DNA of 4,689 bases, taken from a virus. Taxonomy: Duplodnaviria > Heunggongvirae > Uroviricota > Caudoviricetes. Under the pieces are notes generated by a model. That model ran no database searches and was not told the origin of the DNA. It saw nothing but the letters and a program-made list of their open reading frames with translations. The position numbers and the translations under genes are program-made. Where the stretch lies: IMG/VR virus record IMGVR_UViG_2802429221_000008, positions 1-4,689 of that record; one strand, 5' to 3'. Shown here in pieces: positions 112 to 4,518 of this stretch. Positions within the stretch are counted from its first letter, which is position 1. The number at the start of each line of letters is the position of its first letter.

Positions 112-522
112 TTACTGTATTTCTGCAACCGGCCTTCCGGATGAGCCGCGCCCAACATATCTGTCCATTTCCAGTCTGATATCAAGCATCATCAACATCC
201 CAGCAACTATCCCCTCAGCCTTTTGCAACAAACGGCCAACCCAGCAATCGGAACGTCCATGTTTCCTTGCCAGTGCCATGAACGTCATTCCGAACACATA
301 GTAATCAACCAGTAAGTCATGTAAATCTTTGTTGTTCTTATTCAGCCGGGCCATGCATCCGCAAATGACCATCGCGTCATCGTCACAACATTGCGGACGT
401 GACTTAACCTTTGACGGAATCAATCCTTTGAATCCCGCAGCAATCGGTGACCAGGTAACATCCTCGTGGTTATTTGCCACCCATGCCCCCCAACGCTCAA
501 GAACCATCTGAATATCACGCAT
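112..522 (-). CDS. Q: Phage late-gene antitermination protein Q family (phage 82 / QuuD-like)
   Basis: 136-aa ORF. N-terminus '[22 protein letters not shown]' and Cys cluster '[18 protein letters not shown]' match my recollection of the 82/QuuD-type Q antiterminators (recalled, not searched). Strong AGGAGG Shine-Dalgarno upstream. Last gene of the operon and followed immediately by a promoter-like element, as expected for Q and pR'. Confidence 0.65.
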
Positions 523-779
523 CAGCGCAGTACCTCCTGCACCAGCTTTTCAAACTTTCCAACTTTGGTTTCCAGCTCTGCCACACAATCCACCAGCTCA
601 TCCACTGCTTTTTGTGCGCGGTGTTTCGCCTGCATCAGTTCCCTGAGCGCCGGCACCATATCCCGACGAATGGCATCTTTTGTTACACCTGTTTTTTCCA
701 GTTGTTCCGCCTGTCGCAACATTTCCTGTGCCTGTTTACGTAGTTGTTCAGGGGTAAAAGTCATTGTCTGGTTGTTCAA
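522..779 (-). CDS. Small hypothetical protein, 85 aa, predicted helical/coiled-coil, charged; translationally coupled to Q
   Basis: ORF begins at TTG (779) with a GGAG Shine-Dalgarno (complement of 788-791) 8 nt upstream; the first in-frame ATG is at 764 (80-aa version) but has no Shine-Dalgarno. Stop TGA overlaps the Q start (TGATG at 520-524). An AGGAGG motif near its 3' end serves as the Q ribosome-binding site. Confidence 0.6.
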
Positions 780-904
780 AAGAAACGCTCCATCTTACTG
801 CTGTCAGTTCGTTTGTTGCTGTATCTGCGCGGCTGAGGCTGCTGCATTGGAAGAGTCCTGTGCGCTCCCCTGAAAGTTGAAATGTTTTAGCGATGCCTCA
901 AGTC

Positions 905-1765
905 TCATTGTTCGCACTCTCCAACCAGATTAAGAATGACTGCCGCCCCGTTGTCTTCCATGTATTCGTCCTTTCCGCTTGCCAGAAACCAGCGGCACAC
1001 CTCCACAGCTTCAGCGCGTGTCACCGGTTTGATGGTTGCCAGTAATTTTTCCAGGTATCGCTCACGGTCGTATACAGACTCATGGTGTTCGTAATAACCA
1101 AAGTCGTAGCCGAGTTCCTGGCCAGCAGTACGGCGAACGTTGTAAAGCCAGTCCCAGTAAACAAATTCACGAACAACATCTGACAGTGTATGAGGCTCTG
1201 GCAGAACGTCACGATAGCCATCAACATATGCGCGACGCTGATCATCAATTTCATTTATACGACTGCCGTTAATGCTTCCGTCTCTCTTTTCGTCTGCGGT
1301 CCAGCCCCACTGGTAATCATCAGTAAATTTTTGGGAAGACCTGATCACTCGCTCGGCCTCTACGTCCTCCATCGCAGCCTCATAGCTGCCGAACGTAGCG
1401 CGAACATCAGCAGCTTTCTTGATGTTCTTACGCGCATTTTCAATGGCTCTCGCTGGATTATCCATACCGATAGTACCGAAAGCTGCCTGGAAAGGATCAC
1501 AGCCATTCGCCAGCAGATAACGGGAATACCGCTCCTCGGCCTCTTTTGGAGAGATTTTAATTTTCTCCAGCGCTGCTTCTGCAGCGTCCAGATGTGCCGG
1601 TTCGTTCAGGCGGATGACCTCCAGTACCCACAGATAGGCATCGGTCTGTTTATGCCCGGTGATTCTCTGTTGCTCAGGCAGAGGCTTGATGTTTGCCAGG
1701 GCGGAGCTATGCGCTGCCGTCGGGATGGTGAATAGTGCTTTATGTTCGTTGTTATCTGTACGCAT
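905..1765 (-). CDS. Hypothetical protein, 286 aa, function unknown; acidic and aromatic-rich (W/Y/D/E) C-terminal half
   Basis: Long ORF whose ATG overlaps the primase stop (TAATG at 1763-1767), indicating co-translation with the replication genes. No catalytic motif recognised by eye. Position corresponds to the variable nin-like region between replication genes and Q. Confidence 0.7.
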   Translation of the reverse strand: MRTDNNEHKALFTIPTAAHSSALANIKPLPEQQRITGHKQTDAYLWVLEVIRLNEPAHLDAAEAALEKIKISPKEAEERYSRYLLANGCDPFQAAFGTIGMDNPARAIENARKNIKKAADVRATFGSYEAAMEDVEAERVIRSSQKFTDDYQWGWTADEKRDGSINGSRINEIDDQRRAYVDGYRDVLPEPHTLSDVVREFVYWDWLYNVRRTAGQELGYDFGYYEHHESVYDRERYLEKLLATIKPVTRAEAVEVCRWFLASGKDEYMEDNGAAVILNLVGECEQ

Positions 1766-2742
1766 TACGCAGCCGCCTTTTTCTTGTAGAAAACCAGCTC
1801 ACGAACCTGATCGCCGTTCATGAGCATGTTGTTAAAATCATCGTGATCGGGCCAGTACACGCTCACGCGCTGCAGGTCATTCTTTGCCAGCAGATTGGCA
1901 TGAGCGCATTCATAGGCCGCTGCCAATCCGGTGGCACTGTTTTCGTCACGGTCAGCAAAAATAATCAGGTGCTTAACGCCAGCCGGAGCACGAAATTTCT
2001 TCATGAAGTTAGCCGTCATAGTTGCCCAGGTGTTTACGTTGTAAATCTGGTGCGCTGACAGAGCCGTTTCGATGCCTTCGGCGATGCCAAGTGTGCTGGC
2101 TACCGGGAACATCCGGATCGCTACTGACCGGGCGTGATCAAGATAGTTATCTTCCTGCAGGGATTTTTGGCGCTTTGCACTGGCACCGATATCTGCTTTT
2201 TTGGGACCATCGAGTAATGTCTGGTGCAGATAGCACAGTTCCCCTTTATCATCGGTGGCGAGGGAATAAAGCGACTGATACACCCTCCCGGCATGGCGCT
2301 GCTTATCGTTGAAACGGATCGCTTCAAGCGGCAGACTGAAAATGCCGCGCGCATTGAGATACGCAGCACCAGAAGTGCCACGTAACGGCTGCAGCTTCGC
2401 GAACTTATTCAGAACCTTTGTACGCAGGCTGGTAGCGCTGCTGCTGACCGGGATTTTTACACGCTGAAAATCATTACCGATCAGGTGGTCTATTTCCCTA
2501 CAAACCTCATTGAATGGTTTTCCCTGTGTCAGGGTGACAAGCTTCATACCGTCACCGCTGCCGCAAGTACAAATCCACGTTCCACGCCCGTCACGGTCAT
2601 CAATTCGCAACTTTCCGCGCGCACCGCATACAGGGCATTCTCCTTTATAGTGATTTTTTCCAGTTATCGGTGGCAGGCCAAAATGCTCTAAAATTTCAGG
2701 CCAGCGGCCTTTCGCAGCATCTACTGTTTTCATAAAACTCAC
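1765..2742 (-). CDS. DNA primase with N-terminal primase-type zinc ribbon and Toprim catalytic domain
   Basis: 325-aa ORF. Zinc ribbon 'CPVCGARGKLRIDDRDGRGTWICTCG' (C36-C60, nt 2563-2637). Toprim-like acidic motifs 'IAEGIETALSA' (E222/E225) and 'LIIFADRDENSATG' (D264/D266), nt about 1939-2091. Start is GTG at 2742 overlapping the helicase stop (GTGA); the first ATG is 9 nt downstream at 2733, so the true start is ambiguous. Stop TAA overlaps the next ATG (TAATG). Confidence 0.8.
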   Translation of the reverse strand: MSFMKTVDAAKGRWPEILEHFGLPPITGKNHYKGECPVCGARGKLRIDDRDGRGTWICTCGSGDGMKLVTLTQGKPFNEVCREIDHLIGNDFQRVKIPVSSSATSLRTKVLNKFAKLQPLRGTSGAAYLNARGIFSLPLEAIRFNDKQRHAGRVYQSLYSLATDDKGELCYLHQTLLDGPKKADIGASAKRQKSLQEDNYLDHARSVAIRMFPVASTLGIAEGIETALSAHQIYNVNTWATMTANFMKKFRAPAGVKHLIIFADRDENSATGLAAAYECAHANLLAKNDLQRVSVYWPDHDDFNNMLMNGDQVRELVFYKKKAAA

Positions 2743-4391
2743 ACCACTACATTTTTCTGAAGTTGCTGTTTGGCGTTGATAATTGCCTTAGTCGGGCAGT
2801 TCTCAGGGAGCTCGTAAATTGCGGCACAACCTGGCGGCAATGCGCCTGCATGATGAGATTCTGTCTGTGGTTGAGGGGGGCGTTTTTGCCCCTTCGCAAA
2901 CCTGATGAGTTTGTATCTGATGTAGTTGCTTACCTCCGGGGTAATTTCCATCGGGAAATCACTCAGGTTATCCGGCCATTCGCCGAACTTCTCCCGGAAA
3001 GTGTGAGCGCACCAGCCATCACTAACGGGCTTTTTCCCCTGCGATACGCGCTGGCGCTGATAAAATTTGATCTGGCTCCACCAAGCCTGTTTCTCTGCCT
3101 TTGTCGATAGATGCTGATTTTTACCCAGCTTTTTAAGTTTGCGCCCGGTATCGGTATCGACATCCTCACCACCCAACGGCTTATGCCCGCATTTCGGGCA
3201 GACGTATACACCAGCGGGTTTCATGTAGTGGCATTGAGAACATTCATGGGGGAGTTTTTCGGCCCGCTCCTCAGCTGCACGGCGCGCACTTTCCTCCATG
3301 CCATCAGACTTACCGGGGAGATCGTCATACTCGATAGAATCCGGGTAACCGAGGCGGTGTACGGTGCCACTGTGATCGAATATGAGACAAGATTCTTTAC
3401 CCGGCGCTGTGCGCAGGCCGCGCCCAATCGCCTGCAGCCAGCGAATTTCACTTTTTGTTGGCCTGGCGTAGATGATGCAACGAACGTCACTATCGAAGCC
3501 AGCCACCAGAACGCCCACACTAACGATGATTTTCGTTGCACCAGTTTCAAAGCGGTGAATGATGGTCTGACGCTCATCCACTGGCGTGTTGGCGGTCATG
3601 ACCTCAGCGTTAATGCCAGCTTGGTTAAACTGGATTGTCAGAAAATTAGCATGGGCTACGTTGACGCAGAACGCGATTGTCGGCAGATCCCGGCCATTCT
3701 CCAGCCAGTTCTGTACGATGTCGCCCACCAGCGTAGAGCCGCACATGATTTCAGCCAGTTGAGCTTCGTTATAATCGTTGCCGTACTCAAGTGAAGACTT
3801 GGTTTTTACGCCTTTCAGATCCGGCTTTGTTGGCGCATAAAATTCGTATTTACTCAGATCGCCACGCTGGATTAACTCGCCGATGGTGGTCGGTTTAATC
3901 AGTCGGTCATAGTATTTGCCCAGGAACGGGGAAAACGGAGTACCCGACAGGCCAATCACCTTTACGCCTTTGCCGCGCAGACGTTCGATATCCTTCAGGA
4001 TGCGTTTTTTACGCAGGTGTGCTTCGTCGATAATCAGCAGATCAATATTTTCAGGAAAAACACGACGAATAAGCGTGTCGGCGCTGGCAATCTGAATTTT
4101 CCGGTCCGGATCGTAGTTCGGGTGATCCGCCCAGATATAACCGATTTCATCCTCCGGTAACCCGTACTCCACGAAGCGATTAGCCGTCTGACCAATCAGG
4201 ATAGTGTACGGTGCACAAAACAGAACGCGCATACCACGGCTGACGAACCCGGCAACGATGAAAGCGGCCAAACCGGTTTTACCGCTACCAGTTGGCGAAT
4301 ACACCATGAAGGTGTCATTTGCCTTCCAGTCACGACGCAACATGTTTAACGCTCGTTCCTGTGCAAAATTCGGCGTGATCGTCAGCTCCAT
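2739..4391 (-). CDS. Superfamily-2 DEAD/DEAH-box DNA helicase, phage replication type, with C-terminal CxxC...CxxC zinc ribbon and an uncharacterised ~150-aa tail
   Basis: 550-aa ORF. Walker A 'SPTGSGKT' (residues 32-39, nt 4275-4298), motif II 'LLIIDEAH' (DEAH at residues 122-125, nt 4017-4028), motif III-like 'LSGTP', motif VI-like 'QAIGRGLR' (320-327). Zinc ribbon 'CSQCHYMKPAGVYVCPKCGHK' (C384-C401, nt 3189-3242). GGAG Shine-Dalgarno 7 nt upstream of the ATG at 4391. Stop TGA overlaps the primase start. Confidence 0.85.
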   Translation of the reverse strand: MELTITPNFAQERALNMLRRDWKANDTFMVYSPTGSGKTGLAAFIVAGFVSRGMRVLFCAPYTILIGQTANRFVEYGLPEDEIGYIWADHPNYDPDRKIQIASADTLIRRVFPENIDLLIIDEAHLRKKRILKDIERLRGKGVKVIGLSGTPFSPFLGKYYDRLIKPTTIGELIQRGDLSKYEFYAPTKPDLKGVKTKSSLEYGNDYNEAQLAEIMCGSTLVGDIVQNWLENGRDLPTIAFCVNVAHANFLTIQFNQAGINAEVMTANTPVDERQTIIHRFETGATKIIVSVGVLVAGFDSDVRCIIYARPTKSEIRWLQAIGRGLRTAPGKESCLIFDHSGTVHRLGYPDSIEYDDLPGKSDGMEESARRAAEERAEKLPHECSQCHYMKPAGVYVCPKCGHKPLGGEDVDTDTGRKLKKLGKNQHLSTKAEKQAWWSQIKFYQRQRVSQGKKPVSDGWCAHTFREKFGEWPDNLSDFPMEITPEVSNYIRYKLIRFAKGQKRPPQPQTESHHAGALPPGCAAIYELPENCPTKAIINAKQQLQKNVVV

Positions 4392-4441
4392 TGTTTTGCT
4401 CCAGTGCTGATGAGATAATAATTTTGTGATGTGGTTTTCAT
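4382..4441 (-). CDS. Candidate 19-aa upstream ORF (MKTTSQNYYLISTGAKQWS) overlapping the helicase start
   Basis: ATG (complement of 4439-4441) lies 5 nt after a strong GAGGGGG Shine-Dalgarno (complement of 4447-4453). Its TGA stop (complement of 4382-4384) overlaps the helicase initiation region (ATG at 4389-4391) in another frame. Below the length cut-off of the supplied ORF track. Confidence 0.2.
   Translation of the reverse strand: MKTTSQNYYLISTGAKQWS
4391..4419 (+). promoter_or_regulatory. Weak candidate plus-strand promoter that could drive an antisense RNA ending at the 4560-4596 terminator
   Basis: TTGTTT (4391-4396), 17-bp spacer, GATAAT (4414-4419); the -10 matches TATAAT at 5 of 6 positions, the -35 only at TTG. 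Overlaps the helicase start codon on the other strand. Confidence 0.2.
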
Positions 4442-4457
4442 GGATTCCCCCTCACAT

Positions 4458-4491
4458 GGCTGGTGGCCTCCCCAAAGGCTGCCAGCCTCCC
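4458..4491. repeat. Tandem imperfect direct repeat GGCTGnnnGCCTCCC (two copies, 19-bp register); the second copy contains the perfect 11-bp palindrome GGCTGCCAGCC
   Basis: GGCTGGTGGCCTCCCC at 4458-4473 and GGCTGCCAGCCTCCC at 4477-4491. GGCTGCCAGCC (4477-4487) equals its own reverse complement about the central C. Located in the leader upstream of the helicase gene. Confidence 0.5.
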
Positions 4492-4518
4492 TTCTGATTC
4501 AGTTCCCCTGAAAAACAC

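Follow-up and report, generated by a model that had tools for sequence, protein, structure and literature searches.

An optional gene between the primase and the late antiterminator of a lambdoid prophage segment: linkage, predicted structure and possible role

Gene organization of the locus

The window, that is, the whole stretch of 4,689 nucleotides that was analysed, is a lambdoid prophage segment with five co-oriented genes on the minus strand, encoding an SF2 helicase, a primase, a protein of 286 amino acids (aa), an 85-aa protein and the antiterminator Q. The 286-aa ORF, listed as one ATG-initiated frame at 905-1765, is hereafter called X. The features of the locus are as follows:

2739-4391, minus strand: SF2 helicase (ResIII and Helicase_C, with a C-terminal zinc ribbon)
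1765-2742, minus strand: P4-alpha-like DNA primase (Zn_Ribbon_Prim, DUF7146, Toprim_3), the upstream operon partner of X
1763-1767, minus strand: TAATG overlap of primase stop and X start, read from the sequence; the same junction is present in locus L170
905-1765, minus strand: coding sequence of X, stop codon (905-907) included, delimited by the ORF listing, a full-length phrog_6204 match, dN/dS and an AlphaFold2 model
804-908, minus strand: 34-codon ORF left over from a Fels-1-type antiterminator gene; its ATG overlaps the stop codon of X (ATGA, 905-908)
522-779, minus strand: 85-aa coiled-coil ORF (orf85), matching phrog_2565, with no function assigned
112-522, minus strand: Q antiterminator (PF06530), downstream of X

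The gene order is therefore primase, X, (orf85), Q, and the start and stop codons of X each overlap a neighbouring gene. At the upstream junction the primase stop codon TAA (1765-1767) and the ATG of X (1763-1765) have one base in common, and the minus strand reads GCGGCTGCGTAATGCGTACA; this overlap implies translational coupling of X to the primase. The preliminary description had presented X as a real gene joined to the primase in this manner, and it is confirmed in this by the ORF listing, the sequence, the match to phrog_6204 (E = 1.5e-176, residues 1-286 on profile positions 1-286) and a median dN/dS of 0.069 at dS ~1.0 in 46 ungapped pairs with homologues. X is a real gene under strong purifying selection.

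A simple consensus scan revealed neither a promoter-like nor a terminator-like site near 905-1765 on the minus strand, so that X, as compared with morons, has no flanking promoter or terminator of its own. No Rfam match was obtained in the window. Neither iterons or another repeat family nor an AT-rich stretch (GC dip) was found in or beside X (905-1765), and an origin inside the gene was rejected on these grounds. The best sigma-70-like match of the window was located at 82-109 on the minus strand (TTGAAA, 16 nt, TAGAAT; 10/12), just downstream of Q, which is the expected place of a PR'-type late promoter. The X homologue of Fels-1, STM0902, has been listed in a single mutagen-responsive Salmonella operon, STM0900-0903 (PMC2225428), which fits the co-expression of X with the primase. 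This operon listing was all that the literature yielded on STM0902 or its homologues, for which we found no functional study.

On its downstream side, X is followed by the 34-codon ORF, which is homologous in its first 14 codons only; there, MRLEASLKHFNFQG resembles the N-terminus of the PF03589 antiterminator (compare MKLEASLKHFSPQG in loci L153 and L169). This ORF is what recombination left of a Q gene that has been replaced, and it marks a recombination joint and the 3' boundary of the X cassette. With respect to Fels-1, the downstream Fels-1-type Q has been exchanged in the window, leaving a 14-codon scar. The nucleotide matches switch here from phi467/Fels-1-like (878-4501) to phiP27/Stx1-like (426-850). 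As for orf85, it shows ~94% DNA identity to the segment immediately preceding Q in phiP27 and Stx1a-converting phages and seems to accompany the PF06530-type Q, not the replication module.

Gain and loss of X at the primase-Q junction

PHROG 6204, to which no function is assigned, is the only family that X belongs to. Its phage members, namely Fels-1 STM0902, Escherichia phi467 and Cronobacter ENT39118, are 79-87% identical to X over the full length and occupy the same slot between primase and antiterminator. Proteins 94% identical to X were already present in NCBI. The earlier idea that X might be cargo not seen before does not hold in view of these entries: the family is already catalogued and of an ordinary kind (phage dark matter occupying a slot of variable content), with some structural novelty. 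It is also small, with 393 homologues at E <= 1e-3 in a set of 5.8 billion proteins and 138 clusters at 50% identity (E <= 1e-3; 1.84 billion representatives scanned exhaustively with HMMER), and its range covers Enterobacteriaceae, Pseudomonas and many Betaproteobacteria, in Proteobacterial prophages and satellite-like islands.

Close homologues of X (at least 84% identity) were surveyed in 80 IMG/VR loci, and the primase was found immediately upstream in every one of them. The gene 3' of X was a PF03589 Fels-1-type antiterminator in 63 loci, a PF06530-type Q in 14 and orf85 followed by Q in two, the contig ending there in the remaining one; the order primase, X, Q is that of Fels-1 and of 77/80 IMG/VR loci. 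The converse survey, in which the Fostie phage primase served as query and 80 loci were retrieved, gave a different picture. Full-length X was present in 50 loci, one more contig ended inside X, and X was missing from 29. In 27 of these the antiterminator followed the primase directly, with its start at most ~80 nt away from the end of the primase gene; in the other two the slot was taken by an unrelated 214-aa gene, which shows that the primase-Q junction accepts different cassettes. That gene (L153, 4969-5613, and also L211) has no Pfam match and overlaps both of its neighbours, the primase stop with its own start codon and the Q start with its stop codon. The preliminary description had seen in this junction a slot for variable genes, as the surveys bear out. 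It had also reasoned that strict co-occurrence with this primase would make X an ordinary replication accessory; the co-occurrence is strict from X to the primase but not from the primase to X.

The presence of X is scattered on the primase tree, with at least 9 changes (gain or loss), and the closest primases with and without X are 98.2% identical. In the pair L169 and L170, identity is 97.7% through helicase and primase, an 857-nt insertion corresponds exactly to X, and identity resumes at 94.8% in Q. Among isolated phages, Fostie lacks X, while Fels-1, phi467 and ENT39118 carry it. Of 5,426 complete E. coli genomes, 97 contain X and 103 the primase. Because related primase loci and the phage Fostie do without it, and given the near-identity of primases with and without it, X is a usual yet dispensable passenger of the helicase-primase-Q module.

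Domains, conservation and predicted structure of the X protein

An AlphaFold2 model of X, computed with an input alignment of 54 diverse relatives, reached a mean pLDDT of 90.1 and a pTM of 0.84 and predicts an all-helical protein of two domains. The following parts can be distinguished:

1655-1765, minus strand: aa 1-37, conserved and mostly extended N-terminal segment, containing HKALFTIP
1331-1654, minus strand: aa 38-145, N-terminal helical domain (helices 39-52, 56-68, 73-86, 91-97, 104-125 and 136-143; pLDDT 95-98)
1214-1330, minus strand: aa 146-184, variable linker of lower confidence (pLDDT 64-83), containing YQWGWTADEKRDG
908-1213, minus strand: aa 185-286, acidic, Trp/Tyr-rich C-terminal helical domain, the only part matched by phrog_2887 and phrog_19083

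The C-terminal half (aa 141-286) has a pI of 4.69, with 19.9% D+E and 11.0% W+Y, and the N-terminal half a pI of 5.8 with 3.6% W+Y. Of the earlier picture of a helical N-terminal half and an acidic, aromatic C-terminal half, the acidity and the Trp/Tyr content were confirmed, and the three peptides quoted in its favour (YQWGWTADEKRDG, EFVYWDWLYNV and GYDFGYYEHHESVYDRERY) are all located in X. A helical character of the N-terminal half alone was not, since both halves are helical in the model and it is the first 37 residues that are extended, non-helical and confidently placed. By DSSP on the model these residues are coil except for a helix at 6-11 (pLDDT 85-93); F12, P15, P30, T36 and G37 are kept in at least 90% of the sequences of the alignment (A1), and T36 and G37 lead into a TG(D/H)xxxDAxLW motif. 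HKALFTIP (aa 8-15, nt 1721-1744; family consensus H-R-x-L-F-T-L-P) bears a faint likeness to beta-clamp-binding peptides; it is packed against the body in the monomer model, which argues against a free linear motif.

The domain boundaries agree with those of the relatives. Many homologues match as two stretches split at the linker, where A1 is gapped. The N-terminal helical domain stands alone in some relatives (e.g., P0141 and P0144) and is missing from the form found in Klebsiella phages such as KPP5665-2, in which the C-terminal domain alone (158 aa, GP43) occupies the same primase-X-Q slot. It is the C-terminal 100-115 residues that match phrog_2887 and phrog_19083. The two domains do not seem to be copies of each other, an internal duplication having been rejected at an hhalign probability of 1.3%.

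In the 54-member alignment the only invariant residues, P191 and E252, both lie in the C-terminal domain. The near-invariant ones are mostly aromatic or aliphatic (F12, P15, P30, W46, Y80, F125, W204, L207, P247 and L280), with T36, G37, G126, D42, E138 and R211 as further positions of this rank. Where most relatives have the acidic cluster GDxExD, X reads GHKQTD. Such a pattern does not look catalytic. Even so, X, all-helical and with few conserved polar residues, could represent a new type of enzyme or of small-molecule binder.

The searches for known domains agree with the preliminary description, which had recognized no replication, nuclease, methylase or recombinase domain in X: no such domain emerged from profile, PDB-sequence or structure searches. 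Pfam, NCBIfam, PADLOC and PDB sequences gave no match to the conserved body, either with the single protein or with the 54-sequence alignment or profile, and no PADLOC defence family was reached at E <= 1. Initiator and loader families (lambda O/P-like, DnaD-like, RepA-like and DnaC-like) were likewise without a match in Pfam, NCBIfam and PDB sequences, with the protein or with the 54-sequence profile. The sole Pfam match, Dabb (E = 0.14), was rejected as below threshold, and the antitoxin RelB (phmmer, E = 0.52) as chance. Foldseek found no structural neighbour of the model in PDB and BFVD (TM-scores <0.22, E-values >1). A Kyte-Doolittle scan revealed no transmembrane or hydrophobic segment, the maximum 19-residue mean being 0.72; superinfection exclusion, one of the functions previously suggested for this slot, is thus not pointed to.

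It must be noted that NCBI and UniRef label homologues of X as "helix-turn-helix domain-containing protein". Of the 54 diverse members, 32 (~60%) are extended at the N-terminus by at least 35 aa, and these extensions match Sigma70_r4_2, Sigma70_r4, HTH_23, HTH_28 or HTH_SB, or Bro-N in one member, all called from weak-to-moderate Pfam matches (best E = 7.8e-7). A weak ParB/sulfiredoxin-like N-terminus occurs in two members, that of P0227/L040 resting on PDB matches of E = 0.14-0.6 only. In the HTH-bearing relatives the HTH is joined immediately before the segment matching aa 1-37 of X. X itself has no HTH family match at E <= 1 and no HTH structural neighbour. It begins exactly where the HTH extension of its relatives ends, so that the name describes the relatives and not X; the label is wrong for the headless subgroup. 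The longer or partial relatives P0174, P0189, P0208-P0215, L030 and L040 showed no further Pfam domains, and P0238 (1324 aa, matching in 7 stretches) was discarded as what looks like a low-complexity chance match.

Distant relatives and the possible role of X

In a survey of 52 loci from other Proteobacteria, distant homologues of X were found after at least five kinds of replication module other than the SF2 helicase and primase of the window. On the same strand and directly upstream lie a Toprim primase with a DUF927 helicase (~17 Pseudomonas loci), Toprim with DUF3987, PriCT_2/AAA_25, or DUF1376 with DnaC-like and DnaB genes. Family-wide, the modules just 5' of X thus comprise SF2 helicase and primase, a fused primase-DUF927 with SSB, Toprim and DUF927, Toprim and DUF3987, PriCT_2/AAA_25, and DnaC-like with DnaB. 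In ~22 of the 52 loci there was no recognised replication gene within five genes. X homologues often adjoin ORF6N or Bro-N proteins.

An enterobacterial relative with an HTH (51% identity) is flanked upstream by a fused Zn-ribbon-Toprim-DUF927 protein and an SSB, and downstream by a PF03589 antiterminator; in locus L060 the SSB gene is the immediate neighbour of the X homologue. In Klebsiella, a relative ends a nin-like gene string and overlaps the antiterminator start, and in L062 the homologue lies beside a RecA-dependent-nuclease-like gene, just before the antiterminator. In the same Klebsiella prophage setting (L062-L065, ~6613-6984), a 123-aa DnaB_C fragment and the RecA-dependent-nuclease-like gene precede the X homologue; the fragment may be the remnant of an older helicase-X arrangement.

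Small islands are a further habitat of the family. L042 (601-8702) contains an integrase, AlpA, a Toprim primase, DUF3987, an HTH-bearing X and two small genes, followed by host rnr, rlmB and rpsF, a layout that is satellite-like. Islands of ~8 kb like it are L034, L039, L043, L055 and L026. Its small genes are c12 (a phrog_9747 match with a GRPxGSKNK-type N-terminus) and c25, and the trio X-c12-c25 recurs. The Pseudomonas loci have their genes in the same order as AH14b, an experimentally described satellite (PMC4936722): a Toprim primase of ~295 aa, a helicase of ~600 aa and then tail assembly protein I. As published, AH14b has other small genes at the position of X and no gene of its size (PMC4936722). 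In Pseudomonas entomophila (L014, 5636-5880), ~10 copies of GGGGGAAC/GTTCCCCC in both orientations stand directly after the DUF927 helicase and upstream of X; this array probably serves an AH14b-like satellite as its replication origin. The occurrence of HTH-bearing homologues right after primase and helicase recalls the early operons of P4-, PICI- and AH14b-like satellites, composed of int, AlpA, primase, helicase and accessory genes, from which the window differs in being a lambdoid prophage segment with Q.

Two known phage systems offer closer comparisons. The nin-region genes of lambda are non-essential and lie between the replication genes and Q. Like them, X shares an operon with the replication genes and the late antiterminator and lies between the two, with overlapping codons on both sides, and is dispensable and mosaic; unlike them, it shows no sequence or fold kinship to any Nin family in Pfam, and its close homologues stay with one replication module, which most nin genes do not. 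The phage regulators of the Bro-N/KilA-N/ANT type combine a variable N-terminal DNA-binding domain with a variable C-terminal effector domain. The body of X is similarly joined, in its relatives, to interchangeable heads (sigma-r4-like HTH, HTH_23/HTH_SB or Bro-N), but it matches none of the C-terminal modules known for such regulators in Pfam (E <= 1), and the X of the window is headless.

Members of the family usually close the early or replication operon of temperate phages and satellite-like islands. The DNA-binding heads of most members and the siting of the family after varied replication modules suggest an accessory or regulatory function, associated with DNA, during the early or replication phase. 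Given this, our preferred reading, which we hold tentatively, is that X serves the early operon as an adaptor or regulator that is dispensable, non-catalytic and associated with DNA. It would be an optional gene ending the early (replication) operon, its product a soluble, non-enzymatic, two-domain and all-helical protein representing the HTH-less form of a Proteobacterial phage and satellite family that mostly bears its own N-terminal DNA-binding module. The conserved helical body would serve as a binding module at early-phase protein-DNA assemblies, tethered to DNA in most relatives by the HTH, Bro-N or possibly ParB-like domain, and the headless lambdoid X would act through protein-protein contact. 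In this way X may tune, rather than perform, replication or the early-to-late switch.

Such an accessory cannot be told from cargo by gene position alone, since lambdoid phages also gather miscellaneous genes at the end of the early operon. X might instead be directed at the host, as an anti-defence, host-takeover or inter-phage competition factor acting on a host or competitor protein, and we consider this doubtful. The slot is indeed variable (empty in 27/80 loci, with the unrelated gene in 2), X behaves as a precise cassette repeatedly gained and lost, its acidic, aromatic-rich C-terminal domain is of a kind seen in many protein-binding inhibitors, and its predicted fold, with no neighbour in PDB or BFVD, is new. 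It is moreover found in satellite-like islands, where genes past the replication genes often manipulate the helper phage. However, most members have a DNA-binding domain at the N-terminus, which is not usual in inhibitors directed at host defence proteins, and the close homologues never leave the primase (80/80), whereas typical cargo changes context. X also lacks the promoter and terminator of classic morons, and without a membrane segment it is not a membrane exclusion protein.

A more specific proposal, which seems improbable to us, takes the body of X as a structurally new effector module that temperate phages and their satellites join to interchangeable DNA-binding heads. The headless lambdoid form would then act in trans, perhaps as an adaptor linking the phage primosome to a conserved host machine or as a decoy that, in a phage-satellite conflict, titrates the HTH-bearing versions of satellite-like islands.

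Still less likely is a dedicated replication protein, i.e., an origin binder, a helicase or primase loader or a host-replisome adaptor required for phage DNA synthesis. The coupling to the primase and the position after it in 80/80 close homologues would suit such a protein, as would the similar counts of X and primase in complete E. coli genomes (97 vs 103), the distant homologues that follow six unrelated kinds of replication module, and the SSB adjoining one of them in L060. A required protein would nevertheless hardly be missing from 29/80 related modules and from a viable isolated phage, Fostie, nor be reduced to half in Klebsiella phages, and primases 98.2% identical to each other are found with and without X. 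X matches no initiator or loader family, no iterons or AT-rich stretch occur at the gene, and in the Pseudomonas satellite-like locus the iterons lie upstream of X. One partner could hardly serve SF2, SF3, DUF3987, AAA_25 and DnaB helicases alike. Finally, a sequence-specific transcription factor, as the NCBI and UniRef names and the sigma-70 region-4-like HTH of relatives would have it, is very unlikely, the HTH being absent from X.

In practical terms the gain is modest, in that a "hypothetical / HTH domain-containing protein" becomes a defined two-domain family with a corrected annotation. The modules that are isogenic except for X constitute a natural experiment and a picture of modular evolution, to which a confident model without structural neighbours is added. 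If the preferred reading of X as an adaptor or regulator is true, the family would provide a new, structurally unprecedented binding module around the replication and regulation genes of temperate phages and satellites, and a handle on how helicase-primase lambdoid modules connect to the host machinery or to the timing of late genes.
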